From: an uncultured Bacilli bacterium
GTDB lineage: Bacteria; Bacillota_I; Bacilli_A; RF39; UBA660
DNA length: 39,313 nt
NCBI GenBank assembly: GCA_910580135.1
Contig: CAJTXC010000002.1
Coordinates: 1-39,313 of the forward strand
Reading direction: 5' to 3'
Each line of letters begins with the position of its first letter. The stretch's first letter is position 1. The notes under the pieces were generated by a model. The model was not told where the DNA came from, ran no database searches, and was given only the letters and a program-made list of their open reading frames with translations. This document shows, piece by piece, positions 1-27,841 of this stretch. The translations under genes were made by a program, and so were the position numbers.

Positions 1-2
1 AA

Positions 3-520: not shown

Positions 521-547
521 AATATATTTTTTTTTAGGAAGAATAAA

Positions 548-1141: not shown

Positions 1142-1161
1142 TCTATACAATATTTTGAAAC

Positions 1162-1188
1162 AAAAAAACGCTTATTTAGCGTCTTTTT
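1162..1188. terminator. Bidirectional terminator-like hairpin between convergent genes
   Basis: The ACGCT-TATTT-AGCGT stem is flanked by an A-run and a T-run. It overlaps the stop codon of the ABC gene. Confidence 0.4.
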
Positions 1189-2813: not shown

Positions 2814-2815
2814 AA

Positions 2816-3997: not shown

Positions 3998-4020
3998 AAT
4001 AACCTCACTACTTAATATTT

Positions 4021-4461: not shown

Positions 4462-4507
4462 TATTTTTTCTCCTTACCTGTTTAAAAAGTATAAAACTTA
4501 TTGTTTT

Positions 4508-4569
4508 TACATGTTGATAATATCATTAAGCCCCCCCCCGGTCAAGATTTTAACTTTTCCACAGTAAAA
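4508..4569. repeat. Copy 1 of ~62-bp promoter cassette (about 55/62 identical to 5803-5863)
   Basis: TACATGTTGATAATATCATTAAG-C9-GGTCAAGATTTTAACTTTTCCACAGTAAAA aligns with the copy at 5803-5863. Confidence 0.9.
4517..4545 (-). promoter_or_regulatory. Sigma-70-type promoter with a G9 homopolymer in the spacer (17-nt spacer)
   Basis: Minus strand reads TTGACC-GGGGGGGGGCTTAATGA-TATTAT. It lies about 50 nt upstream of the GNAT start. Confidence 0.65.
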
Positions 4570-4570
4570 G

Positions 4571-4610
4571 AAAATGTAAAGTAAAAACAATAATTTTCAC
4601 TTTACATTTT
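4571..4610 (-). terminator. Terminator-like hairpin after the 385-aa gene
   Basis: AAAATGTAAAGT-N16-ACTTTACATTTT forms a perfect 12-bp stem overlapping the stop at 4602. A T-rich stretch follows on the minus strand. Confidence 0.5.
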
Positions 4611-5759: not shown

Positions 5760-5802
5760 ATCTATTACCTCCATATATTCTAGTTATAAAAAACAACAAT
5801 TT

Positions 5803-5863
5803 TACATGTTGATAATAGCATTAACCCCCCCCCGGTCAATATATTGACTTTTCCACAGTAAAA
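5803..5863. repeat. Copy 2 of ~62-bp promoter cassette
   Basis: TACATGTTGATAATAGCATTAA-C9-GGTCAATATATTGACTTTTCCACAGTAAAA. Confidence 0.9.
5812..5839 (-). promoter_or_regulatory. Sigma-70-type promoter with a G9 homopolymer in the spacer (16-nt spacer)
   Basis: Minus strand reads TTGACC-GGGGGGGGGTTAATGC-TATTAT. It lies about 50 nt upstream of the 4602-5759 CDS. Confidence 0.65.
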
Positions 5864-5959
5864 TAGATTGTAAACAAAATTTTTCATAAAAAATTAATAA
5901 ATTCCTTTTTTTTACAATAATTTTTGAATTAGGTGGTATTATATAGTTAAGGAGGAAAT

Positions 5960-7336: not shown

Positions 7337-7361
7337 AGAAATTTAAATATTTCTCTTTTTA
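7335..7361 (+). terminator. Rho-independent terminator
   Basis: AGAGAAAT-TTAAAT-ATTTCTCT stem followed by TTTTATTTT, immediately after the stop codon. Confidence 0.6.
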
Positions 7362-7388
7362 TTTTCCATAATAATACTGGTGATAACA

Positions 7389-8333
7389 ATGAAAGTAAGA
7401 TTAGGTTATGTAGCACTTTCTAAAGCTATGAATGATATAACAACATCAAGTACGATAACATACACTAATTACATAAATAAAAATTATACTGTGGATAAGT
7501 TGTTAGATGTTACAAAAAGTAATTTAGATGCTTTAAAAGAACTACTAATTTATAACGTTAAAAATAATATTCATTTTTACAGGCTAACCTCTAAATTAGT
7601 TCCTCTTGCTACTCACGACAAGGTATCATTTGATTATATAAAACCATTAGATAATAAATATAAAGAAATTGGTAATATCATAAATGATAGCAACATGCGA
7701 GTAGATACTCATCCTGATCAATATGCAGTATTAAATAGCATGGATAAAAAAATTATTAAAAATACATTTAAAATATTAGAATATCATTATAAGGTGTTAA
7801 AAGCATTAAAAATTAATAACCCAATAATAATATTACACGTTGGTAGTAGTGCATGTGGTAAAAAAGCATCAATTACTAGATTTATAAATAATTTTAATAA
7901 ACTTCCAGAACATATACAAAAATGTATTACCGTGGAAAACGATGATAAAATATATAACATAAAAGATGTACTTAACTTATGCACTAAATTAAATATACCA
8001 ATGGTTTTAGATTATCATCATTATATATGCAATAACGATGAAGAAAAAATAGAAGACTACATAAAAGAAATAATGAATACTTGGAAAAATATTAATCCAA
8101 AGTTTCATTTTTCATCACCTAAAAGTAACTTAAAAAAAGAATTTAGAAGTCATCATGATTACATAAATTCTGATGATTTTATAAAATTCATAAACATACT
8201 AAAACCATATAATAAAGATGTAGACATAATGTTAGAAGCAAAAGCTAAGGATGATGCTATCTCAAGACTAGTTAGAGAGCTTAAATATAAGACAAATTAT
8301 AATTTTTTAGATGAAACTACTTTCATTATTTAA
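7389..8333 (+). CDS. uvsE: UV damage endonuclease UvdE/UvsE
   Basis: RLGYVA..., FYRLTSKLVPLATH, VENDDKIYN, DYHHY, FHFSSPKS and IMLEAKAKD motifs are colinear with Bacillus UvsE. ATG at 7389 is preferred over GTG at 7380 (GGTGA lies 5 nt upstream). Confidence 0.85.
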   Translation: MKVRLGYVALSKAMNDITTSSTITYTNYINKNYTVDKLLDVTKSNLDALKELLIYNVKNNIHFYRLTSKLVPLATHDKVSFDYIKPLDNKYKEIGNIINDSNMRVDTHPDQYAVLNSMDKKIIKNTFKILEYHYKVLKALKINNPIIILHVGSSACGKKASITRFINNFNKLPEHIQKCITVENDDKIYNIKDVLNLCTKLNIPMVLDYHHYICNNDEEKIEDYIKEIMNTWKNINPKFHFSSPKSNLKKEFRSHHDYINSDDFIKFINILKPYNKDVDIMLEAKAKDDAISRLVRELKYKTNYNFLDETTFII

Positions 8334-14349: not shown

Positions 14350-14385
14350 GTTTATTTGAAAGTCGAATTAGTTCGACTAATTTCC

Positions 14386-14400
14386 CTATGGTGGACCTGA
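14386..14400. repeat. attL core (CTATGGTGGACCTGA)
   Basis: 14/15 identical to 27473-27487. See the findings for the reconstructed attB and attP. Confidence 0.75.
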
Positions 14401-14620
14401 ATAATCTAAAAACAAACTTTTTTGTCTTTAGAGGTGGGTTCGCACTAATAATAAGACTGAGTTCATAAAACTCTTCTTTTTTTCCTTTTTTCACTTTGGA
14501 ATACTAAGAAATATGCAATTATCCCTATTTAATTTAAGTATATACAAGTGTTTACTATAAATCAACGATTTACATTAATCACTTTTAAATTTCAGTAATA
14601 ATATGTGTTTATGAGATTAT

Positions 14621-14932
14621 TTAACTATTTAACCACTCTTCATTAAATCTTTTTTTAAATTCTTCTTTAACATCCTCTAATTTTGTATTTATTCCTTTTT
14701 GATTTAAATATTCATAGAATGATTTTGAACTAAGTGTTTTATGTTCTATAATATCATTATAATAAGTAACCATCTTTCTAGCTGTATCCTTAAGTTTAAT
14801 ATTATACATTGTATCATTAACTACTCTATTAATTTTTTTATCATTGTTTTCTTTAGCATACTCTAACATTGGTTTAAATACATTTTCATATAAAAAATTT
14901 AATATTTCTTTTTTCTTTTCTTCTTCTGTCAT
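14621..14932 (-). CDS. Hypothetical protein, co-transcribed with the XRE regulator
   Basis: 103 aa. SD GAGGT overlaps the stop of the upstream XRE gene. No family recognised. Confidence 0.55.
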   Translation of the reverse strand: MTEEEKKKEILNFLYENVFKPMLEYAKENNDKKINRVVNDTMYNIKLKDTARKMVTYYNDIIEHKTLSSKSFYEYLNQKGINTKLEDVKEEFKKRFNEEWLNS

Positions 14933-14942
14933 TTGTTATACC

Positions 14943-15167
14943 TCATTTCTTTTTTATTATTATCTCTATATTATGTACCTTACATATTAACTTTATTAAA
15001 TCAGAATTATAAGTTCTTCTACCACTTTCATAATTTTGTATAGCTCTTTCACTTTTTCCAATAGATTTTCCAAATTCTCTTTGTGTGAGCTCAGTTGCTT
15101 GTCTTATAAATCTAATAATATCTTTTGGTTCATAATCATTAAATTTGACTATCATATTCTGTATCAT
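14943..15167 (-). CDS. XRE/cI-like HTH regulator of the element (start uncertain: 15167, 15155 or GTG 15239)
   Basis: HTH is TQREFGKSIGKSERAIQNYESGRRTYN. The ORF-track 5' extension to 15239 would contain the divergent consensus promoter, so an internal ATG is favoured. Confidence 0.65.
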   Translation of the reverse strand: MIQNMIVKFNDYEPKDIIRFIRQATELTQREFGKSIGKSERAIQNYESGRRTYNSDLIKLICKVHNIEIIIKKK

Positions 15168-15195
15168 CACCTCACCCGCATAAAAGCTATATTCG

Positions 15196-15224
15196 TTGAC
15201 AGTATACCAGTTTGGGTGTATAAT
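15196..15224 (+). promoter_or_regulatory. Perfect consensus sigma-70 promoter (TTGACA-17-TATAAT)
   Basis: TTGACA lies at 15196-15201, a 17-nt spacer follows, and TATAAT lies at 15219-15224. It faces the rightward operon of the element and is divergent from the XRE gene. Confidence 0.75.
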
Positions 15225-15282
15225 TAGTTCATAAACCACCCATAGAGGTATAGTATTTTATATAGTTTAAGGAGTTGATAAT

Positions 15283-15915
15283 GTGAATAAAAGTTTTGAT
15301 ATTAATTTAGTTATGAATAAGTTAAGGGAAAAAAAGAAGATTTTTCGTGATGAGAATGATTTTAGACAAGAATTAGATGATACTATACGAGATATGTATG
15401 ATAATTCTAGAGTTAAAATAGAATATCCAGCACCTTTTAATTCTAAAAAAGGTATTGATATTGTAGTTAAAATTAATGATGATTACTACCCAATTGAACT
15501 AAAATACAAAAGAAAACACTTTAAAGGTATTGCTGATAATGTGGAATATGATTTACCTTATGACAGTGCTCAAACTGAAAATAGTTATCGTATTGTAGAA
15601 GACATTGAAAGAATAGAGAAATTTAAAGATAATGAACCTAAGTTTAAGAAAGGGTATACTCTATTTTTAACTAATGATTTATCTTATCTAAATGAACCTA
15701 GAGAAAACTCACAATATAAAGATTTTTCTGTTCATCAAGGAAATATTTTAAATGGTACTTTAACTTGGGCTGAAGGAAGTTCTAAACTAGAAGATAAAAA
15801 ATTTAATAGTCCTATTATATTAAAAGGTACTTATACTATGAATTGGAAAGAATACAGTAATCTAGATAGTGAAAATGGGAAATTTATGTATTTGATTAAT
15901 GAAATAAATAGATAA
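15283..15915 (+). CDS. Hypothetical protein with a PD-(D/E)xK nuclease-like motif
   Basis: GTG start with SD AAGGAG 8 nt upstream. GIDIVVKINDDYYPIELKYK gives D-x13-E-x-K preceded by an acidic helix. Motif-level call only. Confidence 0.5.
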   Translation: MNKSFDINLVMNKLREKKKIFRDENDFRQELDDTIRDMYDNSRVKIEYPAPFNSKKGIDIVVKINDDYYPIELKYKRKHFKGIADNVEYDLPYDSAQTENSYRIVEDIERIEKFKDNEPKFKKGYTLFLTNDLSYLNEPRENSQYKDFSVHQGNILNGTLTWAEGSSKLEDKKFNSPIILKGTYTMNWKEYSNLDSENGKFMYLINEINR

Positions 15916-15975
15916 TAATATTCATTTAGAATATTTATTATAAATAAAATTTTTAAAATGGAAAGAAGGGAAAAA

Positions 15976-17199
15976 ATGAAAAAAATTTTATTAACATTGT
16001 TAGTAGTGTTTAGTTTTATGTTTATAACTACTAATGTTGTTAATGCAGAAGAAGTAACAGGAGAACAGACAGAACAACAAACATTAAAAGTGCTTGATAG
16101 TAGTGCACTTGATGTAATTGATAGTACATATAATATTGATAAGAAAGAAAGTGAATTGGATTTAAGTAACTATGATTCTATTATTAAAATACAAGAATCA
16201 ATAAAGAATGATTATATTAATAAGATAAAAGAAGCAGGATATGATACTTCTAAAATAAATAATGGTATACAATTTAATGTTCAATTTGCCTTTTTAGATG
16301 AAAATGGTGATTTTCCAGATATTCATAAAATTAATGTTGAATTGAGTGAAAATTTAAATTCTATTGGAAAAAAGGTAATTAATGTAAGTTATTCTAGTAC
16401 ATCCGCTTATAATCAAACAGATTTAAACTATGTTAATAATAAAGTAAGCAGTATTAAATTACAAAAATTTGAAAACATGGATACAATATGGCATGTATTC
16501 GATTTTGGGGAGTCTGCATGGTTTGAGAAAACAAACGAATATATTAATAATTATAATTATTCATCATTAGTTAATGATAAAACAATTACCGTTAAAGCTA
16601 TGAGTGGTGGTTGGGGTACAACTCCAGAAACTACTATGTGGGGTCCTACAGTAAAATTATACTTCTTTAAAAATGATGTTTTATATGCTACTAAGGACAT
16701 AAATTTTAGATTTATTTTTGGTACTATGCTAGATAATGGAACTCCCGTTGTTATGGCTAAGCAAGATGATAATACAGAAATTTATAAAGAAATGGCGAAA
16801 GAATTAGAAAAGCTAGGATTAGATAATGTTATTGGTTGTTACGAATTAGAAGCATACGGAGATACTTATAATAACATGTCTATATCATTTAGTATTGATA
16901 GTAAATATAATGGTAGAGGTGTAAAAATACTTCATAGAAAAAGTGATGGAACGTTTGAAACATTTGATACTAAAGTAGTTAATGGAAAAGCTACTATAAC
17001 AGTAAGTGAGTTTTCTCCATTTATAATAGCATTAACTGATGATGATCCTATTACTGCAACTAAGTTATCAAACAATGCTCAAACTTCATCAATGGATATA
17101 GCAAAATATGTAGTATTAGCTTTAGGCTCTTTAATAGGAATTACATATATACTAATTAATAAAAAGAAAATAAAGAAAGTAAAGAAAGTAGCAGCTTAG
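15976..17199 (+). CDS. Secreted surface protein with a sortase-B-type sorting signal
   Basis: Signal peptide MKKILLTLLVVFSFMFITTNVVNA. The C-terminus has NAQTS, a hydrophobic stretch (IAKYVVLALGSLIGITYILI) and a basic tail (KKKIKKVKK). Confidence 0.7.
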   Translation: MKKILLTLLVVFSFMFITTNVVNAEEVTGEQTEQQTLKVLDSSALDVIDSTYNIDKKESELDLSNYDSIIKIQESIKNDYINKIKEAGYDTSKINNGIQFNVQFAFLDENGDFPDIHKINVELSENLNSIGKKVINVSYSSTSAYNQTDLNYVNNKVSSIKLQKFENMDTIWHVFDFGESAWFEKTNEYINNYNYSSLVNDKTITVKAMSGGWGTTPETTMWGPTVKLYFFKNDVLYATKDINFRFIFGTMLDNGTPVVMAKQDDNTEIYKEMAKELEKLGLDNVIGCYELEAYGDTYNNMSISFSIDSKYNGRGVKILHRKSDGTFETFDTKVVNGKATITVSEFSPFIIALTDDDPITATKLSNNAQTSSMDIAKYVVLALGSLIGITYILINKKKIKKVKKVAA

Positions 17200-17218
17200 T
17201 TGCTATTTCTTTCTATTT

Positions 17219-17974
17219 ATGAAGAAAAAATTGAAAATAAAAACTGATAATATTGTGTTAATTATATTAGTTTTAGTGTTCCTATTTGCTATTGCTAAAA
17301 TTACACTATTTGTAGTAGATTTAAATAATAATAAACAAGATAATAAAAAATTAATTGATGAAGTAATTGATAAAAAAATAGATAAAAAAGAAGAAAAAGA
17401 TGATAAGAAAAATTTAGATTTTGATAAGTTATTATCTATTAATAGTGATACTGTTGGTTGGATTAAATTTAATAATGACAAAATAAATAACCCTATTGTA
17501 CATACCAGTGATAATTCATATTATTTAACTCACTCTTTTTATAAGAAAAAGAACCAGGCAGGAGCAATATTTATGGATTATAGAAATAACTCTTTTGATG
17601 ATAAAAATGTAATATTATTCGGACATAATATGAGTGATGACACTATGTTTGGAAGTTTAAAAGATGTATTTAAAGATGACTTTTTTAAGGAGAAAGAAAA
17701 TAATTATATAAAAGTGTATAATAAAGATAATGAGCTTCTAACCTATCAAATTTTTAGTTACTATATAATTGAAAAAGAAGAATATTATATAACTACAACT
17801 TTTAGTAATGATGATGAGTTTAGCAAGTTTATTAATACAATTAGAAAAAGAAGTAAGAAGAATTTTGATGTTAATGTGGATGTAAATGATAATATACTTA
17901 CTCTATCTTCTTGTGAGGGATTTGGCGGAACGACTAAGAGAAAAGTTATACATTTAGTAAGAGTGAATAATTAA
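17219..17974 (+). CDS. srtB: Class B sortase
   Basis: N-terminal TM. DTVGWIKFNNDKINNPIVHTSDNSYYLTHSF, catalytic His in LFGHNM, Cys in LTLSSCEG, and Arg in TKRKVIHLV. Confidence 0.85.
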   Translation: MKKKLKIKTDNIVLIILVLVFLFAIAKITLFVVDLNNNKQDNKKLIDEVIDKKIDKKEEKDDKKNLDFDKLLSINSDTVGWIKFNNDKINNPIVHTSDNSYYLTHSFYKKKNQAGAIFMDYRNNSFDDKNVILFGHNMSDDTMFGSLKDVFKDDFFKEKENNYIKVYNKDNELLTYQIFSYYIIEKEEYYITTTFSNDDEFSKFINTIRKRSKKNFDVNVDVNDNILTLSSCEGFGGTTKRKVIHLVRVNN

Positions 17975-18042
17975 GCTGATAATATGTATCACATCGGTTA
18001 GTTTTATCTGTTTTGTAATTATAATAATATTGGAGGTGTGTT

Positions 18043-18441
18043 ATGAATAATGAAGTTCTTAACGATAATTATGTATCTAAAATAAGTCATATTGTTGGTA
18101 AAGTTCATAATGTTTCTTTTGAAGTATTCTTTGATGATATTAAGATTTTTGAATTAGAAAACTCTATGATCGTGCTTATGAGTATGAGAGATGGTACAGG
18201 AAATATGAGTGCAGTATTATTAGGAGCAAAAGACTTGGAAACTAAAAATACTATTAAAAATATTAATTTAAATGATAAGTATTTAATTACTGGTAATATC
18301 CCTTTTGATTTAGATTATGTATATGAGGGATTAAGGGAAAGAATTAAAGATGATAAGAAAATAAAAAAAGAAATGTTAAAGAATAAAGTGTTATTTGTTA
18401 AAGCAATACAGAAGATAGAACATAAAAGAAACGGGGTGTAA
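18043..18441 (+). CDS. Hypothetical protein, possible OB-fold
   Basis: 132 aa with SD GGAGGTG. SMRDGTGNMSAVLLGAKD resembles the D-x-TG...A-x-x-F strand pattern of nucleic-acid-binding OB folds (weak). Confidence 0.45.
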   Translation: MNNEVLNDNYVSKISHIVGKVHNVSFEVFFDDIKIFELENSMIVLMSMRDGTGNMSAVLLGAKDLETKNTIKNINLNDKYLITGNIPFDLDYVYEGLRERIKDDKKIKKEMLKNKVLFVKAIQKIEHKRNGV

Positions 18442-18446
18442 TAATA

Positions 18447-19115
18447 ATGGATATTGGTGGAGATGAGTTATTTGGTATTGATATTGTAGAAGTATATGAT
18501 TACAGTCTAGATAAAGCTTATAACTTGATTAAAGATAATACAGATTATTTAGATAATATTTCGATTGATGAAGTAAAAGAAATAAAATTTTCTTCTTATA
18601 AAGACATTATTATTTTATTAAGAAATGGTATTTTATTAGTTAATGGGAAAGTAAAACTAGAAAATATAAAGACAATTTGGGCTCTAAGTGGTGTATCTAT
18701 TTTTGCTTTTAGTAATGATAATATTATTACTTGTTTAGTTGGAAAATCTGAAGCTACCAAATTTATTAATAATAATAACTATCAGTATAAAAAAATAATT
18801 ATTACTACTCTTACAATGGTTGCATTGACACACGAGAGGGATATTAAAGTATTTAAAACATTAGTTGATGATGTAATTGACTATAATAGATACTTTGATA
18901 TTGATGATATTGGTTATGTAGAAGAAAATGAAGATGTAGTAGTAATTAAAAATGATAAAGTTTATTCTTTATTTGTTAAATATGATTATTCTAATGATTT
19001 CCCTAGTGTTATGGTTGAGGGAGAGATAGAAGTAAATAAAAAAGTTTATGTAACAGATTCCAATTATATGAACTATACAGAGAATATAATTATGTTAACT
19101 GATAGTAATACCTAA
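18447..19115 (+). CDS. Hypothetical protein with beta-strand repeat pattern
   Basis: 222 aa. Repeated blade-like segments (IIILLRNGILLVNGK, IFAFSNDNIITCLVG, VVVIKNDKVYSLF). No family recognised. Confidence 0.5.
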   Translation: MDIGGDELFGIDIVEVYDYSLDKAYNLIKDNTDYLDNISIDEVKEIKFSSYKDIIILLRNGILLVNGKVKLENIKTIWALSGVSIFAFSNDNIITCLVGKSEATKFINNNNYQYKKIIITTLTMVALTHERDIKVFKTLVDDVIDYNRYFDIDDIGYVEENEDVVVIKNDKVYSLFVKYDYSNDFPSVMVEGEIEVNKKVYVTDSNYMNYTENIIMLTDSNT

Positions 19116-19203
19116 AAAAAGAACAAAATGTTCTTTTTTCTTTATGAGGCGGGATTTTCTAATAAATTGATATTAAAATAATACTATAAAGGAGTGATAA
19201 AAT

Positions 19204-19515
19204 TTGTTAAATCAAACAGTTTTAGTTGGAAGATTAGTAGATATAACTAAAATTAAAAAACTAAAAGATAAAGGTAAAATCTCAATTGTAACCTTAGCAG
19301 TTCCAAGGAACTTTAAAAATTCAGATGGAGAATATGATACAGATTTTATAGATTGTATATTGTATGATGGTATTGCTGAAAACACATGCGAGAATTGTCA
19401 CAAAGGAGATATTCTTGGAATAAAAGGAAGAGTTCAAACTACTAATGATAAAAATATTAAGAATACCGAAATTGTTGCAGAGAAAGTAACATTCTTAACA
19501 AGTTCAAATAAATAA
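19204..19515 (+). CDS. ssb: Single-stranded DNA-binding protein, short form lacking the acidic C-terminal tail
   Basis: TTG start with SD AAGGAG 8 nt upstream. MLNQTVLVGRL...TLAVPRNFKNSDGEYDTDFIDCILY...GDILGIKGRVQT is colinear with the SSB OB domain. Confidence 0.75.
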   Translation: MLNQTVLVGRLVDITKIKKLKDKGKISIVTLAVPRNFKNSDGEYDTDFIDCILYDGIAENTCENCHKGDILGIKGRVQTTNDKNIKNTEIVAEKVTFLTSSNK

Positions 19516-19542
19516 AAGGAAAAACGTAATACTTTAGGTTTT

Positions 19543-19950
19543 ATGGTAATAACAGATAGTGAAATATATATTTTAAAAAATGAAACAAAAGAAAACATTA
19601 CTTCATATTTCTACAATATTATAAATTGTATACATCAAAATGATAGAATTTTATATTTTACCCTTTCTTATTCAAAAGAGGAATTATTAAGTAAGTATAA
19701 AAATTTTAATAAAAAGAATATTAACATTATTTATACCTCTACCCTTTCAATAGATGATATAGAACAATATATTGAAAAATATAGGCCAAATTATATTTTT
19801 GTAGATTACTTTACCTTAACAAAAAATAAAAGACATATGTATATTAACGGTAACAAAATTAAATATGTAAATGATAAAGTAAAAATTTATGAAATTAAAT
19901 ACTCTATTAAAATTTTTATAATTGTAAACTGGATAGATTATAAGGGATAA
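19543..19950 (+). CDS. Hypothetical protein, DnaB/RecA-fold C-terminal-like remnant without Walker A
   Basis: ILYFTLSYSKEELLSKY and RPNYIFVDYFTLT resemble the FSLEMS and IDYLQL segments of DnaB-type helicases. No GxxGxGK[ST] motif is present. Confidence 0.4.
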   Translation: MVITDSEIYILKNETKENITSYFYNIINCIHQNDRILYFTLSYSKEELLSKYKNFNKKNINIIYTSTLSIDDIEQYIEKYRPNYIFVDYFTLTKNKRHMYINGNKIKYVNDKVKIYEIKYSIKIFIIVNWIDYKG

Positions 19951-19991
19951 AGTGAAAATTTTTTTCCATTTTTCCCTTATAATTTTTTAAA

Positions 19992-21563
19992 TTAATCTTT
20001 ATTAAGATTTTTTCCCCTTTTTCTTTCTTCTCTTTTATTCTCTCTTTTACGTTTTCTTACTCTTATCTTCTCACAGTCTTCAGAACAACAAATTTCTTTA
20101 TTTTTTTTATCAAATATTTTTTTACAGATAGGACATCTACCAATTGAACCATTATGTTTTATTTTAAATTCGTTTATTTTATCAGGAATTAACCTATTCA
20201 TAGCAATACATAGATTATTAAAATATTCTACATACATACCATCATCTACACTATCGTGATTAAAGTAATTTTTTTTATCATCTTCGGAAAAAGAATCCTT
20301 CATTTCGGAAATAGTCATACAATTAAATCCGAAAATTTTTGAACAATAAATATTATTATAATAATTTAATGTTTCTTTTATATTAGCAATTTGAGTATTA
20401 TTAATTCGTTTGGATCTAGATTTCCGATTATTTTCTTTAGGGATAAAATTAAATATAGATAATATTCTCTCATCTGCTACTTCACGTTCAGTACATAACG
20501 TATAATACATATAATTATAGACACTATTTACAATTAAATTATTACAAGGTATGATGAATTCATCATTTTCTAACTTAAACATTCTTCTAGTCGCTTCTAA
20601 ATATTCTTTCTCTAACTTCTTAGAAATATAATAAGGGAAACCATATTTTTTTAACCATGACTTGATTATAGAGTGAACTTTCTTTTTTTGATAATAACTA
20701 AATTTAATAATTATTGGAGCTTGTTTTCTATCCTCATAAAAATCTACATTTGATATTTTTGAAAGACTTCTAGAACCATTAGAAAGATTTTTTTTTAAAT
20801 CATCTTTAAAACTACTTTCATCAAGTTTTTCAACTAAGGTATTTTTCATTAATTCTAGTTTTTCAATATTGTGGATAAGAACTTCATTTGCCTTAGTAAT
20901 AATTTCTTTTTCTTCGAAAATATTATATGCAACCATATAATTGCTTAATTTATTATTTATTAAAGATAAAATAGATTCTAATTCTAATAAGTCAGAATAG
21001 ATATTATAATTCTTATATGATTTATTTTCAACTATAATTTCTTCTGGTGTATCACTTAGCGCTAATAAATTACCAAGACAATCTTGTGCTAAATCTATTA
21101 CTTCACTAATTTTTTCTTTATTTAACACTTTATTACTAAGATATAAAGAAGTAAATTTACTTATAAATTTATTAATATTTACTGTCATATCATATTCTGC
21201 ATCTGTTAATTGCTCAACTATAGGAAAATAATACATCTCAGAATATCGACTGGTTAAATCTGATATATCGGTTATTTCATATCTACTTATTACTTTTATT
21301 TTATTTTTTGAGGTTGCCAGTTCAAATAATTTTTTTCCTAAATTTAAGTACGCTTGAAAAAAAGCATCACATTTAATTTTATTTTCATCTCGTTCTTTCC
21401 TATTTATCCCTTTTATATAAGAATACTCCGTTGTATAAACTCCTTTTATGTTGTTTTCATTTAAAACTTCACTAATTGCAACCATATCTTCATCTTTAGA
21501 ATCAATAATCTCATATCTTTCAAACATAGGTAAATTATCAATAAATATAAAAGAATTTTTCAT
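19992..21563 (-). CDS. ORFan, 523 aa, C-terminal C4 zinc ribbon and Lys/Arg-rich tail
   Basis: SD GAGGTGA lies 6 nt upstream. CPICKKIF-x9-CCSEDCEKI is followed by RVRKRKRENKREERKRGK. It is the only leftward gene inside the rightward replication operon. No family recognised. Confidence 0.7.
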   Translation of the reverse strand: MKNSFIFIDNLPMFERYEIIDSKDEDMVAISEVLNENNIKGVYTTEYSYIKGINRKERDENKIKCDAFFQAYLNLGKKLFELATSKNKIKVISRYEITDISDLTSRYSEMYYFPIVEQLTDAEYDMTVNINKFISKFTSLYLSNKVLNKEKISEVIDLAQDCLGNLLALSDTPEEIIVENKSYKNYNIYSDLLELESILSLINNKLSNYMVAYNIFEEKEIITKANEVLIHNIEKLELMKNTLVEKLDESSFKDDLKKNLSNGSRSLSKISNVDFYEDRKQAPIIIKFSYYQKKKVHSIIKSWLKKYGFPYYISKKLEKEYLEATRRMFKLENDEFIIPCNNLIVNSVYNYMYYTLCTEREVADERILSIFNFIPKENNRKSRSKRINNTQIANIKETLNYYNNIYCSKIFGFNCMTISEMKDSFSEDDKKNYFNHDSVDDGMYVEYFNNLCIAMNRLIPDKINEFKIKHNGSIGRCPICKKIFDKKNKEICCSEDCEKIRVRKRKRENKREERKRGKNLNKD

Positions 21564-21802
21564 ATAATATCACCTCAAAAAATTTTTTCAATTTTGGAAT
21601 CACATATAATATAAGGGGTTTCTCCTGATTTGTCGCCATTTTGTACAGTTCTATAAAATAGAATCTGTATATTTTTTTTGGTTAAATATTCTTATCAGCT
21701 GATAAAAAAGCAGAAAAAATAACATCCATATTATATCACTTATTCTGCCTAAAAACTAGAGTTTCTAGAGCTCTAAAAACAATGAAAAAAAGGAGGAATA
21801 TT

Positions 21803-21952
21803 ATGACAAACGTATTGCTCACCAATGAACAAGCTAAAACATTAGCTCACTTTATATATGGTTATTTAAATGACTATATAAAAGATAATGATGAAGCATT
21901 TCAGAGTTTCATTTTTAACATAACAAAGAAAGGAATGATGAATAATGTTTGA
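21803..21952 (+). CDS. Small hypothetical protein (49 aa), below the ORF-track cutoff
   Basis: ATG at 21803 is preceded by AAGGAGG. Its stop overlaps the next ORF's start by 8 nt (coupled). Confidence 0.5.
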   Translation: MTNVLLTNEQAKTLAHFIYGYLNDYIKDNDEAFQSFIFNITKKGMMNNV

Positions 21953-22373
21953 AAATGAAGTAAAGAAGTTTAACACTTTTCAAGAGTATCTTGATGAGGT
22001 GAAAAAAAAGAGAAGTAACTCTTTAGAAAATGGTGTACCATATAAAGGTACTTTAAAAGAAATAAAGGCTAACACCACATACACTATGCAAATACCTAGT
22101 CTAGATTTTATATATGAAATTAATGGGATAGAAGCTGTTGATACATATGTATTTGATATAGATAACCCTAAGTATATAGAATTTACTATAAATAGATTAA
22201 CTGATACTTTGGGTCTTTATGGAGAAATATTTGAAAAGTTTACCGACACTGAAACAGTAGCTGAAACTTATCAACATTTAATAGGTACAGAGGCTATTAT
22301 AAAGCAGCATTTGTATAAAGGGCACTTAAAGTATGAAATTTTAGGCACTGCAAAAACGGGGCTAAATATATAA
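21945..22373 (+). CDS. Hypothetical protein
   Basis: 142 aa, translationally coupled to the small upstream ORF. No family recognised. Confidence 0.55.
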   Translation: MFENEVKKFNTFQEYLDEVKKKRSNSLENGVPYKGTLKEIKANTTYTMQIPSLDFIYEINGIEAVDTYVFDIDNPKYIEFTINRLTDTLGLYGEIFEKFTDTETVAETYQHLIGTEAIIKQHLYKGHLKYEILGTAKTGLNI

Positions 22374-22469
22374 AACATAGGTAAAGGGAGAAAGGGAAGA
22401 TTTGTTAATATTTACAGAATTTTCTCTTCTTCTCTATATACCTGAAATTAATGAGAGGAGAATTAATAT

Positions 22470-24857
22470 ATGAAATTAATGGTTGATAAAGTTGAGTTTA
22501 AAAGCAAACCAAGTGGAAATGAAATAGCTCAAATTCAAAATAGATTTAAAGATGAAAATACACTAAAAGAAATAAGCGTAACAGAACTATTTGACTATAT
22601 AAAAAAAGGATATACTTTTGTTCCCGGTGTTACTAAAGGCGGTGCAAAGAATGAAAATTGGGAGCAACAACAAGTTATCTTTATTGATGTAGATAATGAT
22701 GATAGAAACAATATACTTACACCTAAACAAGCTATATCTAAATTTAAAGAAAAGAATATTGAAGTCCTAGGTTATTACCATACATTTAGTAGTACTAATG
22801 AAATACCACGTTATAGACTTATTTTATTATTAGATAAACCTATAACTGAAAAATCTAAAATGGAATTCATACTGAAGACATTAATAGATTATATAGGTGG
22901 AGATAATGCTTGTAAAAATCTTGCTAGAATTTTTTATGGTACTAATGGAGATGAAAAAGAAGTTATTCTTCTTAACTCTGGAGCTACTATTACATTTGAT
23001 GAAATTATTTCACTAAATAATCAAATTCAAAAAGCTAAAGATTATGGAAATGATTTAAATAAATTAGTAAAAAAGTTTGATTTATTAGAGTACATGAAGA
23101 AAGATAATAATGTTACCTATATTTCAAATGATAGAGTGAATTTTGAAACTTGTTCTATTTGTGGACATAAAGACTGTTTACGTTATTATCCTAAAACGAA
23201 TTCATTTTATTGTTTTGGAAAAAATGGTAATACTGGTGGAACTATTATTGAGTATCTTATGGCAACAAAGAATATGGATAAAAAAGAAGCTATAGAGTAT
23301 TTTAAACATGATATTTTAAGGCTTTCTGATAATCAAGAGAGTAAACCTGATAACTTCGATATACTATTAAAAACTGTAAAAAATCAAATTAAAAGTCTAG
23401 GCTTTCCCGATAATATAGTTAATGAAGAAAACTTTATTTGGATAAGTGAAAATATGAAAATACTTTGTCCTTATCTAGCTGATTTCTTTAGAAAAAATGT
23501 TAATTATATTTTTGTAAAAGATAGAGCTACTCACGAGACACTTAAATACTTTTATTTTAATAATTACTATGAGCGTAAAGCTGATGAAGAAATAAGAGGG
23601 ATTATAAAACAATTTATACCTATGCCTTTACAAAAATCTTCACAATTTAACGAAGTTTTTAATCTACTATTGACTGACTTAAATTTTGTGAATGTAGATG
23701 AACTAAACAAAGAAAATATTATAAACTTTCAAAATGGTATTTTTCATATAGATACGTGGAAGTTAGAAAAGCATTCTCCAAAGTATTTATCTACAATAAG
23801 GATTCCATGTGAATATCATGAAGATGTTCCTACCCCTGAAACTAAGTATTTTGATAACTTTATCAATACACTAACCAACGGAGATAATGAAATTAAAAAA
23901 TTACTGTTTCAAGTAATGGGTGTAGCAATTTCTAATGTTGCAGGTTATAGAATGAAAAAAGCTATTTTAATGTATGGTAAAGGAAATACTGGTAAATCTG
24001 TATTAAAAAACTTTTTAACTTCAATTATTGGAAAAGAAAACTGCACTAATATTGATTTAAAAGAGCTAGAAGATAAATTTGGTAAAATCAATTTATTACA
24101 TAAAAGAATGGCTGGATCTAATGACATGAGTTTCGTTAAAATAAAAGAACTAGAAACTTTTAAACAAGCAGTAGGTGGAGACCTAATACATGGTGCTGAT
24201 AAATTCGAAAAAGCAATTGATTTTAAATTTAAAGGTGTATTCTGGTTTTGTGCAAATGAACTACCAAAATTTGGAGGAGATCAAGGAGACTGGGTTTATG
24301 ACCGATTTATTGTAGTTGAATGCAAAAATGTTATTCCTAATGACAAGCAGGATAAAGAGCTTGTTGAACACCTTTTAGAAGAAAAAGAATACATTGTATC
24401 TCTTGCTTTAAAAGGCTTAAAAGAAGTTATAGACAACAAATATCGTTATGACATACCTCAAAGCTGTATATTGTTAAATGAACAATATAAAATTGATAAC
24501 AATAGCTTTAGAACCTTTTTACAAGAATGTTGTATTGATAGAGTACCTGGAGCAAAAATCGAAGATACGAATTGTACTAAAGGAAAAATACACAAAGTGT
24601 ATAAACAATGGTACAAAGATAATTATCGTGGTGGTTTTTATGAAACAACTAGCGAAATTAAAAAGATTTTAGAAAATATGGATAAATACCATATTATCAA
24701 AACCAATAACGGTAATGAATATTATAAGGACTTTACTTTAAAAGAAGAAATACAACGAGAATACAAAGACCTTTTAGGAATTCTAGATATTCCACCTGTT
24801 GAAACAATAAAACCAGAAGATGTTGGATTAGAAGATATGGATGAATTAACATTCTAA
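22470..24857 (+). CDS. Primase-helicase (prim-pol N-terminal domain, zinc finger, P4/D5-type SF3 helicase)
   Basis: 795 aa. VIFIDVDND acidic motif, CSICGHKDCLRYYPKTNSFYCFG zinc finger, Walker A GKGNTGKS, and downstream WFCANELP. Confidence 0.85.
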   Translation: MKLMVDKVEFKSKPSGNEIAQIQNRFKDENTLKEISVTELFDYIKKGYTFVPGVTKGGAKNENWEQQQVIFIDVDNDDRNNILTPKQAISKFKEKNIEVLGYYHTFSSTNEIPRYRLILLLDKPITEKSKMEFILKTLIDYIGGDNACKNLARIFYGTNGDEKEVILLNSGATITFDEIISLNNQIQKAKDYGNDLNKLVKKFDLLEYMKKDNNVTYISNDRVNFETCSICGHKDCLRYYPKTNSFYCFGKNGNTGGTIIEYLMATKNMDKKEAIEYFKHDILRLSDNQESKPDNFDILLKTVKNQIKSLGFPDNIVNEENFIWISENMKILCPYLADFFRKNVNYIFVKDRATHETLKYFYFNNYYERKADEEIRGIIKQFIPMPLQKSSQFNEVFNLLLTDLNFVNVDELNKENIINFQNGIFHIDTWKLEKHSPKYLSTIRIPCEYHEDVPTPETKYFDNFINTLTNGDNEIKKLLFQVMGVAISNVAGYRMKKAILMYGKGNTGKSVLKNFLTSIIGKENCTNIDLKELEDKFGKINLLHKRMAGSNDMSFVKIKELETFKQAVGGDLIHGADKFEKAIDFKFKGVFWFCANELPKFGGDQGDWVYDRFIVVECKNVIPNDKQDKELVEHLLEEKEYIVSLALKGLKEVIDNKYRYDIPQSCILLNEQYKIDNNSFRTFLQECCIDRVPGAKIEDTNCTKGKIHKVYKQWYKDNYRGGFYETTSEIKKILENMDKYHIIKTNNGNEYYKDFTLKEEIQREYKDLLGILDIPPVETIKPEDVGLEDMDELTF

Positions 24858-24883
24858 TCCAATTTAATCTTAAGGGATATTTA

Positions 24884-25200
24884 TTTCACTAGAAGTGAAA
24901 ATTAAAGTGAAAAATATTCTAATCAAATACTAAGTAGATATTGATAAAATTAACAGTTAAGTGAAAAAGTGAAATTAAATTTATATTTATAATATTTATT
25001 ATTTATATTTTTTAATCAAAAAATAAAATCATTTACAAAATAAATAAATATAAATAATAGAGTTTTTTCACTTTCTCACTAATACCTACTTTTCCTACTT
25101 TATTTACAATAAACAAAACAAAAATAATATTCACTTATATCATCCCTACTTTAATATTTTTATCACTTCATCTACAAAAAAAATCCCTAGTGAAAAAAGC
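24884..25200. other. Putative replication origin: inverted iteron sets flanking a 91-nt AT-rich core
   Basis: AAGTGAAA-type repeats lie at 24894, 24906 and 24960-24974, and inverted at 24884, 25066-25080, 25131 and 25163. CCTACTTT occurs 3 times (25085, 25094, 25145). The core 24975-25065 is almost pure A/T. The region lies immediately 3' of the primase-helicase gene. Confidence 0.65.
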
Positions 25201-25360
25201 ATACGATAATACCAACTTAATTAAGTATAGTATTTTGGGTTCAAAACGCATAAACACGAACTTTAGAACCAGTTCCGAAATGTTTAGGGGTTTTTAACTG
25301 ATTACGGAGGGCTTATTTCTATTAACACCTATATAATTTATTTATAAGGAGGAAATAGAA

Positions 25361-25969
25361 ATGGATAATAGTAGAATTTATGGGTATGTAAGGGTGTCAT
25401 CGAGGCAGCAGCACACAGACCGCCAAGTACAAGCATTAATTGAAAATGGAGTTGATGAAAGATTTATATTCATAGATAAACAAAGTGGGAAAGACTTCAA
25501 CCGTGAACAATACCAAATTTTAAAAAATGCTTTAAGAAATGGAGATACACTATATGTAAAGTCGCTGGATCGATTTGGTAGGAACTATTCCCAAATCATA
25601 GAAGAATATTCTTCTATTGTAGATTTAGGGGTTAATCTTGTTATTTTAGATATGCCTCTTCTTGATACCAGACAAAATGATGATTTAATGCGCAAATTTG
25701 TAAATAATTTAGTTTTACAGATTTTAAGTTTTGTCGCAGAAAATGAACGTAAATACATAAAAAGTAGACAGGCTGAGGGAATTTCTATAGCAAAAGCAAA
25801 AGGAGTTAAATTTGGAAGACCAAGAATAGACTATCCAGAAAATTGGAATAGTGTCATTAAGCGTTGGGAAAACAAAGAAATTACTGGAGTTCAAGCTCAA
25901 AGAGAACTAGGACTTAAACATAATACATTTTATAACCTATACAGAAAACAACAAGAAATGAAAAAGTAG
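25361..25969 (+). CDS. Small serine recombinase (resolvase/invertase family)
   Basis: 202 aa. IYGYVRVSSRQQHTDRQ catalytic motif, SLDRFGRN, and a C-terminal HTH. SD AAGGAGG. Confidence 0.9.
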   Translation: MDNSRIYGYVRVSSRQQHTDRQVQALIENGVDERFIFIDKQSGKDFNREQYQILKNALRNGDTLYVKSLDRFGRNYSQIIEEYSSIVDLGVNLVILDMPLLDTRQNDDLMRKFVNNLVLQILSFVAENERKYIKSRQAEGISIAKAKGVKFGRPRIDYPENWNSVIKRWENKEITGVQAQRELGLKHNTFYNLYRKQQEMKK

Positions 25970-26010
25970 TAATCAGTACATCTAAACTAAAAAAGAAAAG
26001 AGTGATATAA

Positions 26011-27516
26011 ATGAAAGGAAATGCTAAATTATATTTACGATATAGCTCTTCTAGTCAAGACCCTCAAACTATAGAGGTACAAAGAAAGAAATGTCTTGAA
26101 TATGCTAAAAGATTAAATTTAAATGTTATTGGTGAGTATGTTGATGAAGCACAAACCGGAAGAAACGATAATAGAAAAGCATTTAAACAAATGCTAGAAG
26201 ACAGTAAAAGTGGAGATTTTCAATATATCATAGTTTTTAAATTGGATAGGTTTGCACGTTCAATGCAAGTAAGTATTAATAGTCAAGCAGAATTAGAGAA
26301 AAACGGTGTCGAGGTATTATCTACTTGTGAAGAACTACCTCATAATGCTAGTGGTAAATTCATGAAAGGTATCTATCAATTAGTAGCTGAATTCTACTCT
26401 AATGACTATGCAGAACGCATTAGTAATGGACTTGCAAACAACGCCTCTAAATCTCTAACAACAGGTAATAATGTTCCTTTAGGATTTAAAATAAATAAAG
26501 AAACAAAAGAATTTGAAATTGATGAGGTATACGCTCCAATAGTAAAAGAAATATTTGAACGTTACGCTAAAGGAGATACAGTTGTAGACATTACAAGTGA
26601 TTTGAATGAAAGAGGATATGTAACTAAAAAAGGAAATAAATTTAATAAAAATAGCTTACATCGTATGCTTGTTAATGAGAAATATATAGGTATTTATATA
26701 TACAAAGGTCAAATTATGCCTAAACGTATACCTAGAATAATAAGTGATGAGTTATTTAATGAAGTACAAGAGGTAATGGAAAAGAACAAAAAAGCACCAG
26801 CTAGACAAAAAGCGTTTACAGAATATTTATTAACACAAAAACTGTTTTGTGGATATTGTAAAGAAATGATGACAGGTTACTCAGCTAAGAAGAAATACAA
26901 CTATTATGGATGTAAGGGAAAAAAACAACATAAGTGTAACAAATTACCGGTTCATAAGGATTTTATAGAAGATTTAGTGTTTGATGAAACTAAGAACTTC
27001 TTAAATAATCAAAAAAATATAGATATGATAATTAAAGAAATTGAAAATATCGCTAAAAGAGAACGTGATGATAGAGGTTTAAAAGAGTTTAAAAAACAAC
27101 TTAAAACAGAACAAAGAAAAAAAGAAAATCTATTAAACGCACTAGCTAATTGTAGTGATGAAGACATAAGACAGGATATATACGAAAAAATGGGTTCAAT
27201 AAAAGCTAGTATTGAACGTATAACATTTGAAATTTCTAAAATTGAAACTCCAATAGATACTATGCTACTAGATAAAATAAACTTTGTTATAGAGGAGATG
27301 AAAAATGGAAATATCAAGGATATAAAGTTCAAGAAACTACTAATTAATATGTTTATAAGTGAAATTTACTTATATGATGATATGGTTACTATTGTATTTT
27401 TAACAACAAAAAAGAAGAACATTAAGTTCTCCGATGATTTATTAAAACAAACTAAAAGTTTGTTTAATACTACTATGGTGGAGCTGACGAGAGTCGAACT
27501 CGTGTCCGAAAAATAG
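26011..27516 (+). CDS. Large serine recombinase (integrase of the element)
   Basis: 501 aa. AKLYLRYSSSSQ catalytic region, KLDRFARS, a recombinase domain, the zinc ribbon CGYCKEMM...YYGCKGKKQHKC and a coiled coil. The last 41 nt overlap ssrA. Confidence 0.9.
   Translation: MKGNAKLYLRYSSSSQDPQTIEVQRKKCLEYAKRLNLNVIGEYVDEAQTGRNDNRKAFKQMLEDSKSGDFQYIIVFKLDRFARSMQVSINSQAELEKNGVEVLSTCEELPHNASGKFMKGIYQLVAEFYSNDYAERISNGLANNASKSLTTGNNVPLGFKINKETKEFEIDEVYAPIVKEIFERYAKGDTVVDITSDLNERGYVTKKGNKFNKNSLHRMLVNEKYIGIYIYKGQIMPKRIPRIISDELFNEVQEVMEKNKKAPARQKAFTEYLLTQKLFCGYCKEMMTGYSAKKKYNYYGCKGKKQHKCNKLPVHKDFIEDLVFDETKNFLNNQKNIDMIIKEIENIAKRERDDRGLKEFKKQLKTEQRKKENLLNALANCSDEDIRQDIYEKMGSIKASIERITFEISKIETPIDTMLLDKINFVIEEMKNGNIKDIKFKKLLINMFISEIYLYDDMVTIVFLTTKKKNIKFSDDLLKQTKSLFNTTMVELTRVELVSEK
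27473..27487. repeat. attR core (CTATGGTGGAGCTGA), the 3' ACCA/acceptor end of tmRNA
   Basis: 14/15 identical to 14386-14400. Confidence 0.75.
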
Positions 27517-27841
27517 TCCACTATAGCCTCTACAAGTTTAGTTAGTAATTAAGGTTTAATTAAATGATAAAGGTAACTAACATACCCACCATATAACGAG
27601 TTTAGTAAAATTCATTACTCTTTCCTAAACAAAAAGAATAGTATAACTCACTAAAATTGAGCCTCTTTAAAAGCACGTGAGTAAAACTTAAAAAGAAGCG
27701 CTTTCTCTATTAGAGACTAGGCAGCACAAGCTGCGAAAGCATAATTATTTGTTTTGTTATTTATTTTTTGTTTGCACGTAAGGAGTGCCTTCCACTTGCA
27801 ACTATAGATTCATCTTTTTCGTCGAAACCAATAACAGCCCC
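27476..27841 (-). ncRNA. ssrA: tmRNA (transfer-messenger RNA)
   Basis: The minus strand starts GGGGCTGTTATTGGTTTCGACG and ends GGACACGAGTTCGACTCTCGTCAGCTCCACCA (T-arm, acceptor with G3-U, CCA), 366 nt in all. The only Ala-rich frame ends ...KTNNYAFAACAA-TAG. smpB lies 2 kb away. Confidence 0.9.

Follow-up and report, generated by a model that had tools for sequence, protein, structure and literature searches.

The 39,313-nt stretch of DNA analyzed here (contig CAJTXC010000002.1, positions 1 to 39,313, assembly GCA_910580135.1, from an uncultured Bacilli bacterium; hereafter the window) carries an element inserted at the 3' end of ssrA, the gene for transfer-messenger RNA (tmRNA). The element is certainly a serine-integrase island that is specific for the tip of ssrA and has recently moved. 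In all likelihood, it represents a recently active integrative island of ~13.1 kb, probably self-replicating and not self-transferring, that belongs to an undescribed family of uncultured low-GC Bacilli. It extends from position 14388 to about 27480 (13,093 bp), and its ends and target are laid out as follows. Related loci in other contigs are referred to by L numbers.

14361 to 14385, no strand: host B arm, natively downstream of ssrA where the locus is uninterrupted, directly joined to the end of the tmRNA gene in L017
14361 to 14378, no strand: small hairpin in the host B arm, weak (z = -1.7)
14386 to 14400, no strand: attL core CTATGGTGGACCTGA, crossover within 14388 to 14395
14401 to 14468, plus strand: P' arm (AAACAAACTTTT at 10 to 21 nt) plus 24 codons and a stop (14394 to 14468), homologous to the P' region of L049
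27414 to 27465, minus strand: two hairpins, a putative replacement ssrA terminator, antisense in the integrase gene (z = -3.5)
27445 to 27472, no strand: P arm of attP and attR (AAACAAACTAAAAGTTTGTTTAATACTA), in register in all family members
27473 to 27487, no strand: attR core CTATGGTGGAGCTGA, crossover window 27475 to 27482
27476 to 27841, minus strand: tmRNA gene (ssrA), the integration target, full length by Rfam, with a candidate tag end ...NNYAFAACAA before the stop

The target gene is complete. It matches Rfam RF00023 over model positions 1 to 374 with 155.8 bits, and both the acceptor stem GGGGCUG/CAGCUCC (with G3-U) and the CCA are intact, as the initial annotation of this stretch had proposed; ARAGORN reported no tmRNA in the window despite this score. 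A plausible tag reading frame is present, with the C-terminal end ...NNKTNNYAFAACAA followed by a stop. The annotation had further described a duplicated 15-nt core and two perfect inverted repeats at the element ends, and all of these hold. A scan of the whole window for the 15-mer CTATGGTGGA[C/G]CTGA, with up to two mismatches permitted, yields only the sites at 14386 to 14400 and 27473 to 27487, which are identical at 14 of 15 positions, against 0.01 matches expected. The 9-bp inverted repeat (14370 to 14378 and 27492 to 27500) and the 12-bp inverted repeat (27454 to 27465 and 14410 to 14421) are exact, and AAACAAACT, which occurs three times in the 39-kb window, is confined to the ends of the element. 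No second tmRNA fragment or tandem island was found in the window, which thus holds a single island.

An uninterrupted counterpart of the insertion locus exists in another genome. A 31-nt string (CGACTAATTTCCCTATGGTGGAGCTGACGAG) across the predicted empty-site junction, ...AGTTCGACTAATTTCCCTATGGTGGAGCTGACGAGAGTCGAACT..., was searched in one genome per GTDB species and has one exact match, in contig CALVIG010000003.1 of an uncultured Bacilli metagenome-assembled genome (L017), with a chance expectation for a 31-mer in about 6 x 10^11 bases of roughly 3 x 10^-7. By blastn, positions 1 to 87 of L017 align to window positions 27559 to 27473 with 88.5% identity, and positions 73 to 136 align to 14400 to 14337 with 84.6% identity; the two segments overlap by exactly the 15-nt core. 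Since one uninterrupted stretch aligns to both pieces, it maps to the two outer flanks of the element. It had been argued that relatives with an intact ssrA locus ought to continue into the sequence now found left of the element, and L017 does so, running from the tmRNA straight into 14385→14337. Of the two att sites reconstructed earlier, attB therefore corresponds to a real empty site, and attP gains indirect support through its conserved arms. The displaced terminator that had been placed just outside attL exists as a hairpin, albeit a weak one.

Farther from ssrA, the order of host genes differs between the two loci. Positions 340 to 960 and 5779 to 7990 of L017 match window positions 534 to 1156 and 5891 to 8087 in opposite relative orientation, and the block with M18 aminopeptidase and UvdE genes (window 1 to 8333) is inverted relative to ssrA compared with L017. 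The segment of the window from 8.3 to 14.3 kb (ABC-2 transporter, TetR, desulfoferrodoxin, and HTH-CYTH genes) has no counterpart in the 8-kb L017 locus.

Both ends of the element recur in other hosts. The 103-aa protein encoded next to attL is found without any change in 23 public contigs, and wherever a shown locus extends to the junction, the end of the element is the same through ...TCAGGTCCACCAT (in tmRNA sense). Past this identical end comes one of three unrelated host flanks, joined at the same nucleotide (ATGGTGG). Locus L026 is 100.000% identical to window positions 20932 to 14388 (6,545 nt) and unrelated beyond, and L007 to L010 are identical to the window as far as ...GGAGCTGA, where a tmRNA whose T-arm differs, that of another host, takes over. 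On the integrase side, one protein body carries many C-terminal tails after ...SLFNTTMV (members of two 90% clusters), and at least six of these tails are translations of different tmRNA 3' ends. An identical left end in different host flanks, together with an integrase reading into at least six tmRNAs, indicates a recently mobile, site-specific element. Judged from these junctions, it moves between hosts, always landing at the same nucleotides.

The same junctions bear on the idea of a decayed prophage that has kept its integrase and replication genes. The XRE repressor, P4-type primase, single-strand DNA-binding protein (SSB), and serine integrase of the element are phage-like and agree with such an origin. 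A remnant is hard to reconcile with a left 6.5 kb that is 100% identical in the flank of another host or with identical left ends joined to three flanks; moreover, relatives with integrase identities as low as 60% retain this compact gene set, likewise free of structural genes, and every open reading frame (ORF) of the element is intact, with no pseudogenes seen. This origin is very improbable and effectively excluded.

The crossover is bounded to 8 nt, ATGGTGGA, corresponding to the CCA end together with the discriminator and the first bases of the acceptor. Its left limit is set by the divergence of the three host flanks before A14388 and its right limit by the C/G mismatch at 14396 and 27483. 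The att sites have the features typical of a large serine recombinase (LSR), namely, a 15-nt core and imperfect dyad symmetry without long direct repeats. Joining the inner flanks reconstructs an attP of roughly 50 bp, AAAAGTTTGTTTAATACTA-CTATGGTGGACCTGA-N9-AAACAAACTTTT, and predicts the circular junction ...GTTTGTTTAATACTACTATGGTGGACCTGAATAATCTAAAAACAAAC... The P arm AAAC-N4-AGTTTGTTTAAT-N7-TGGTG is present in all relatives, in the family form AAAC-N4-AGTTTGTTT(A/T)AT-N7-TGGTG, and its register is kept in every member. A diverged P' arm is available from L049 (TGGTGGACCTGA-N8-AAAAACAAACT), which is 73% identical over 78 nt to window positions 14386 to 14463; it also has the C that separates attL from the tmRNA, so this C is a feature of the element. 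The host half is far more variable: the 9-bp attB palindrome of the window is matched at only 6 of 9 positions in L017, and the B arms of three hosts have only a loose T(C/A)GA(C/A)T in common. The site is probably recognized mainly by its tRNA-like half. A degenerate P-arm scan of viral contigs returned two chance matches without an integrase, which were rejected.

The integrase gene itself spans the recombination site.

26011 to 27516, plus strand: large serine recombinase, 501 aa in the integrated form, with Resolvase, Recombinase, and Zn_ribbon_recom domains

All three domains that define an LSR (PF00239, PF07508, and PF13408) score above their cutoffs, and the N terminus, LYLRYSSSSQDPQ, contains the catalytic-serine motif. 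In the integrated state, the ORF crosses attR and ends at 27516, 40 nt inside ssrA. When it is joined across attP, the ORF runs through 14394 to 14465 to a stop at 14466 to 14468, giving a predicted protein of 514 aa with a 24-codon tail, DLNNLKTNFFVFRGGFALIIRLSS. The P' arm of L049 encodes DLTEPKTNYFVFSCGFALIISLS in the same frame, with 16 of 24 residues identical and the stop within one codon; this conservation suggests that the tail of the excised form is a genuine portion of the integrase kept by selection. Because attP lies inside the integrase ORF, integration swaps, at the level of the predicted proteins, a conserved hydrophobic 24-aa tail for a short host-dependent peptide read antisense from ssrA, and this swap may affect function.

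One tentative extension of these observations, which we regard as possible and rather doubtful, combines an integration-state switch in the integrase gene with recognition mainly of the acceptor/T-arm half that tmRNA and tRNA-Ala share. The tail KTN[F/Y]FVF..GFALII.LS would be made from the circle and replaced by a host-variable peptide once the element is integrated. In that state, the 3' end of the integrase mRNA would be antisense to the abundant tmRNA and would have to pass the ssrA terminator on the opposite strand. Tail swap and antisense overlap together could shut down or reprogram the integrase.

The insertion also has consequences for ssrA, whose downstream sequence now comes from the element. 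Just after the CCA, in tmRNA sense, there is a first hairpin, AAACAAACU...AGUUUGUUU, and then a second, GGAGAAC-UUAAU-GUUCUUC, followed by U6. The predicted fold of this region has a z score of -3.5, compared to -1.7 for the native downstream hairpin. Both hairpins are predicted in six relatives, with compensatory changes in three pairs of the second one. The element thus appears to supply an ssrA terminator, written antisense in the last 35 codons of the integrase gene. In three JGI contigs (L042, L044, and L045), the tmRNA is followed by only the last 20 to 34 integrase-like codons and the hairpins, without an integrase body upstream; these are either relic stubs left after loss of an element or a native arrangement that the element mimics.

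The integrases related to that of the window form a clade of 60 to 98% identity, below which identity drops sharply to about 46%. The tmRNA gene is confirmed beside the integrase in L001, L003, L007 to L009, and L016, and the clade members with enough sequence context are at tmRNA (L001/L002, L007, and L016). A sister element, with an integrase 60% identical, sits at the 3' end of tRNA-Ala(UGC) in L012 (11463 to 11538) and L013 (7573 to 7648). The tRNA-like domain of tmRNA mimics tRNA-Ala, and both targets begin TGGTGGAG...GAGA.TCGAACTC. By tblastn, the core conserved across the family consists of the XRE gene, SSB, the proteins p135, p523, p56, and p142, the primase-helicase, the small serine recombinase, and the LSR. 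Elements of the window type alone carry, as accessory genes or cargo, the 103-aa and 210-aa proteins, the surface protein, the sortase, and the 132-aa and 222-aa proteins (p132 and p222). One relative is about 18.5 kb, judged from one end, based on two independent contigs of 18,495 and 18,496 nt that both stop 8 to 42 nt past the integrase stop codon, at the att junction.

Family elements can share ssrA with an unrelated island. In L049 to L051, the family integrase gene is directly followed by a 5.7-kb island that encodes a Mob_Pre relaxase together with a 623-aa serine integrase unrelated to that of the family (25% identity). In L050 (11477 to 17172), this island lies between the family element and ssrA as a tandem array, flanked only by TGGTG; in L049, identity extends through ...TGGTGGA, after which a P' arm of the family type begins. 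The stacked island shows that two or more serine-integrase lineages use ssrA as a common hotspot, where islands accrete in tandem as in Dehalococcoides. Two junctions in which ATGGTG is joined to CGATA... or to CCTGTG... had been considered as attP or secondary sites that would narrow the crossover to ATGGTG. This narrowing was dropped because the CGATA junction is the border with the stacked Mob_Pre island. The other junction, ATGGTG followed by CCTGTG(G/A)AGAAG..GAATAACTTTT, stands behind integrases of different subclades in L011 (8750 to 8830), L022 (11470 to 11520), and L024 (10455 to 10530), and could be a P'-like arm shorter by 2 nt or part of another stacked element. The integrase of L024 is truncated by an IS3-family element and followed by an IS256-family transposase.

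Stacking offers one way in which a family element could travel, as an integrative mobilizable element (IME) that relies on conjugative transfer, either in trans or, once it has accreted with a neighboring relaxase-bearing island, in cis. The Mob_Pre island beside the family element, in tandem in L050, fits this route, and ssrA islands of Dehalococcoides have been classed as IMEs (PMC3146451). The window element has neither a relaxase nor a coupling protein nor a recognizable oriT, no ORF of the window matches a relaxase, type IV coupling protein, Mob, or Rep_trans family, and the window contains neither a Mob_Pre island nor a second tmRNA fragment. We consider mobilization an unlikely route for this element.

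The remaining genes of the element and its regulatory features are as follows.

14621 to 14932, minus strand: 103-aa ORFan, the left-most gene, no family match
14943 to 15239, minus strand: XRE/HTH_3 repressor-like gene (PF01381, 5e-8), probably 70 aa (14943 to 15155) as called in relatives
15196 to 15224, plus strand: σ70 consensus promoter TTGACA-17-TATAAT, the only 12/12 match in the element
15283 to 15915, plus strand: 210-aa protein, cargo, with sub-threshold similarity to Cas4 and PD-(D/E)XK nucleases
15958 to 17199, plus strand: 413-aa secreted surface protein, cargo, no family match, features read from the translation
17219 to 17974, plus strand: class B sortase, cargo, partner of the surface protein (TIGR03064, 195 bits, above cutoff; PF04203)
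18043 to 19115, plus strand: two ORFans, 132 aa (weak oligonucleotide-binding fold) and 222 aa, in window-type elements only
19204 to 19515, plus strand: SSB (PF00436, 1e-16), conserved across the family
19543 to 19950, plus strand: 135-aa protein (p135), weak similarity to a DnaB C-terminal fragment (PHROG_19, 9e-7), kept in L012, L020, and L022
19992 to 21563, minus strand: 523-aa family-specific ORFan (p523) with a C-terminal zinc ribbon and a basic helix, divergent from the replication operon
21782 to 21952, plus strand: 49- to 56-aa protein (p56), 46 to 57% by tblastn in L001, L011, L012, L016, L020, and L022
21945 to 22373, plus strand: 142-aa conserved ORFan (p142), upstream of the primase
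22470 to 24857, plus strand: primase-helicase, 795 aa, with D5_N and DUF5906 domains and the superfamily 3 (SF3) helicase of P4-family primase C termini
24884 to 25196, no strand: origin-like region, iterons around an AT block, directly downstream of the helicase gene
25361 to 25969, plus strand: small serine recombinase of the resolvase/invertase type, 202 aa (PF00239, 2e-28), adjoining the integrase in most relatives

The XRE gene is 63 to 66% conserved in L012 and L016, and the 12/12 promoter points away from it, toward the rightward operon. Protein p56 is kept in every family member and adjoins the integrase in the most divergent ones, L012 (9693 to 9848) and L016 (9740 to 9877); its size matches that of known small LSR directionality factors. 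By position and conservation, p56 is a candidate recombination directionality factor or regulator. Protein p523 has about 22 full-length representatives among 1.8 billion proteins in a profile search. Its AlphaFold2 (AF2) model (predicted local distance difference test [pLDDT] score, 69) has no fold match in PDB or BFVD and shows no capsid- or terminase-like fold. Assignment of p523 as a PcfJ-like protein was rejected, the profile search having returned only its own family and generic zinc-ribbon repeats. For p142, there are only five homologues, and its AF2 model (pLDDT, 51) is unusable.

The surface protein has a signal peptide, a C-terminal NAQTS-like sorting signal, a hydrophobic segment, and a basic tail. 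Between near-identical elements, this surface-protein/sortase cargo is only about 82% identical in nucleotide sequence (15958 to 17974 versus L020 1 to 1075), compared to 94 to 100% for the backbone, a pattern suggestive of cassette exchange or diversifying selection. An inverted repeat of 24 nt with 92% complementarity (15966 to 15989 and 19955 to 19978) encloses the segment that runs from the surface protein to p135 and may serve the small serine recombinase as a site. No inverted variant of this segment was seen in the relative contigs.

Replication genes occupy the center of the conserved core. The primase-helicase scores above the cutoff for the P4-family primase C-terminal domain, and its best match among solved structures is SaPI5 PriRep5 (PDB 7OLA). 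The gene is directly followed by 10 (A)GTGA(AA) iterons, where about one would be expected from the motif frequency of the whole window scaled to the length of the region. The iterons to the left of an 80-bp AT block (24980 to 25059; 95 to 97% A+T) are direct, and those to its right are inverted. The same layout, a fused Pri-Rep gene and then iterons flanking an AT-rich block, is that of the origins of Staphylococcus aureus pathogenicity islands (SaPIs) (PMC9371898). The annotated inventory of two serine recombinases, an XRE gene facing a consensus promoter, and a primase/SF3 helicase followed by an iteron origin is therefore sound. The prim-pol N terminus proposed along with it is not supported: no AEP/Prim-Pol model matches there, only a weak DnaG-type zinc ribbon. 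The gene content makes it very probable that the element replicates autonomously after excision.

These parts can be assembled into a putative life cycle. The XRE repressor would hold the strong divergent promoter silent. On derepression, the integrase would excise the island with the help of a directionality factor, for which p56 is the best candidate, and the primase-helicase, assisted by SSB, would fire the adjacent iteron/AT-rich origin. The small serine recombinase may resolve multimers or assist the integrase. In a new host, the LSR would join attP with the last bases of ssrA; the tip of the gene is rebuilt from element DNA, so that the tmRNA stays intact. Movement from cell to cell would use outside machinery, such as a helper phage, coresident conjugative functions, or transduction.

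The need for outside machinery follows the earlier statement that the element has no recognizable capsid, terminase, lysis, or conjugation genes, which stands in all libraries searched. No ORF in the window matches a capsid, portal, terminase, tail, lysis, relaxase, coupling-protein, or type IV secretion system family in Pfam, PHROGs, NCBIfam, or PADLOC. The ORFans of L012 and L016 have only weak matches in PHROGs, all to families without a known function and none to packaging, and the precomputed Pfam gene tables of the relatives contain no structural or transfer gene. Packaging-hijack genes (terS, capsid-size redirection, Ppi, or an own capsid or portal) are likewise absent from the Pfam, PHROGs, and NCBIfam results.

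Foremost among the possible routes, and itself held only tentatively, is a phage satellite of the phage-inducible chromosomal island (PICI) type, which would refine the reading as an integrative island: a helper phage would lift repression, and excision, replication, and packaging through factors hidden among the ORFans would follow. The element has the set expected of such a small island, namely, an integrase, a master repressor, and a primase/initiator with its origin, though the integrase is of the serine type. Its size fits (13 kb, with relatives up to about 18.5 kb), the repressor has a strong divergent promoter, structural genes are missing while accessory cargo is present, and the primase has weak matches to primases of Streptococcus "satellite phage Javan." The SaPI layout of the replicon also speaks for a satellite, and serine-integrase satellites are known, e.g., the phage-inducible chromosomal island-like element (PLE) and some marine virion-encapsidated integrative mobile elements (VEIMEs) (PMC9618062). 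Set against this are the lack of a terS, capsid-size, Ppi-like, or capsid gene in any library scanned and the failure to identify a helper phage or a cos or pac site. No family member occurs in IMG/VR, GenBank phages, or viromes, which is weak negative evidence only: the whole element has no megablast match to GenBank phages, and the nearest integrases in IMG/VR are 43 to 45% identical and not beside a tRNA or tmRNA gene. The replication module also suits elements resembling the staphylococcal cassette chromosome (SCC) and plasmid-like elements.

An SCC-like hitchhiker, next in our estimate and likewise possible rather than probable, would handle its own integration, excision, and replication and spread by generalized transduction, by transformation, or by capture on other elements. 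SCC combines serine recombinase(s), a helicase/primase, SSB, and cargo at the 3' end of a conserved single-copy gene, and the parts list of the element agrees with this. The nearest NCBIfam models for the integrase are CcrB and CcrA, and the ssrA islands of Dehalococcoides have been interpreted in a similar way (PMC3146451). The integrase nevertheless falls far below the Ccr cutoffs (123 versus 900 bits), and the XRE switch with its strong promoter points to an induced, active life cycle over passive carriage. The satellite hypothesis draws, by analogy, on the SaPI-like replicon, the switch, and the size; SCC-like hitchhiking, and comobilization with the stacked Mob_Pre island (which is not in the window), would fit equally well.

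Several points weigh against the reading of the element as an active, self-replicating island. Exact scans of viral contigs and JGI metagenomes contain no circular attP junction or excised form, and an exact lookup of the predicted 514-aa integrase with three body variants also found none. The center of attB (between the G and T of GGTG) and that of attP (G of GGA) are about 2.5 nt apart, and the central dinucleotide is not fixed. The covariation of the terminator hairpins is confounded by coding, as they overlap the integrase segment ...TKKKNIKFS... Of the 15 genes, seven lack an assigned function and another two have only weak matches, so a packaging, relaxase-like, or directionality role could hide there, and the structure models are moderate (pLDDT, 69) or poor (pLDDT, 51). 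Homology and position are the sole basis for the roles given to the small recombinase and p56 and for replication and repression.

Serine integrases are not known to target tRNA or tmRNA genes, according to the authors of Islander (PMC4383910). The ssrA islands of Dehalococcoides, with the serine recombinases DsiB and DsiA, are the published exception (PMC3146451). The initial annotation had called the combination of serine recombinases and an ssrA site an unusual architecture, which is fair, but these islands are a precedent for it. They also integrate at ssrA by a pair of a large and a smaller serine recombinase, form tandem arrays downstream of ssrA, and carry cargo without transfer genes; the integrase ORF crosses att and stops beyond it, inside ssrA or the next island (PMC3146451). 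For DsiB, the same peculiarity of an ORF running across att and the same speculation about a tail swap have been reported (PMC3146451). This likeness of the integrase to DsiB concerns the described architecture rather than a sequence alignment. The Dehalococcoides islands differ in that their hosts are Chloroflexi, not low-GC Bacilli, and they are described as nonreplicating, whereas the family described here has a primase-helicase, an origin, and SSB (PMC3146451). Their insertions are in the T-loop, the direct repeat is 20 bp long, and six syntenic genes make up a dsi integration module. The crossover here is at the CCA end; no ParB domain was detected in any of the ORFs, and besides the recombinase pair, the adjacent genes are replication genes. 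Compared to the Dehalococcoides islands, the other phylum, the location at the CCA tip, the sister element targeting tRNA-Ala, and the PICI/SCC-like replication module are new.

Other known elements share parts of this organization. SaPIs and other Gram-positive PICIs fall in the same size range (13 to 18 kb); they, too, have divergent promoters with a repressor and carry accessory cargo but lack structural genes, and the Pri-Rep gene of SaPIs is also directly followed by its origin. PICIs use tyrosine integrases, whereas the element described here reaches its tmRNA/tRNA gene target through an LSR and has no detected homologue of terS, cpm, ppi, or capsid genes. SCC and SCCmec, with large serine recombinase(s), a self-loading helicase/primase, SSB, and cargo at the 3' end of a conserved single-copy gene, target rlmH rather than ssrA; the integrase is no Ccr orthologue (CcrB, 123 versus a cutoff of 900 bits; CcrA, 105 versus 700), and an XRE switch and an iteron origin are not SCC features. 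Small integrative replicative elements with LSRs are also found among the Vibrio PLE, marine VEIMEs, and LSR-bearing tycheposons, none of which has a sequence relationship to the element. The integration target of PLE is a repeat element rather than a tRNA or tmRNA gene. Tycheposons are islands beside tRNA and tmRNA genes, but 910 of 937 use tyrosine recombinases.

The Dehalococcoides islands are the only described exception that we found to the rule separating serine integrases from tRNA and tmRNA genes, and the same solution is now seen in uncultured low-GC Bacilli: an integrase ORF running across attP, a small partner recombinase, and tandem stacking at ssrA, here together with a SaPI-like replicon. 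The attB, attL, and attR sites, mapped precisely from several hosts, allow tests of how an LSR reads a tRNA-like site with one variable half-site, and they raise the question of whether the swap of the integrase C terminus regulates directionality. An integrase that targets the near-universal 3' end of tmRNA would be useful for engineering uncultured or nonmodel low-GC Bacilli. If the tentative reading of an integration-state switch with recognition mainly of the tRNA-like half is true, tolerance of a varied other half would make this protein a naturally broad-host landing-pad integrase for low-GC Bacilli.

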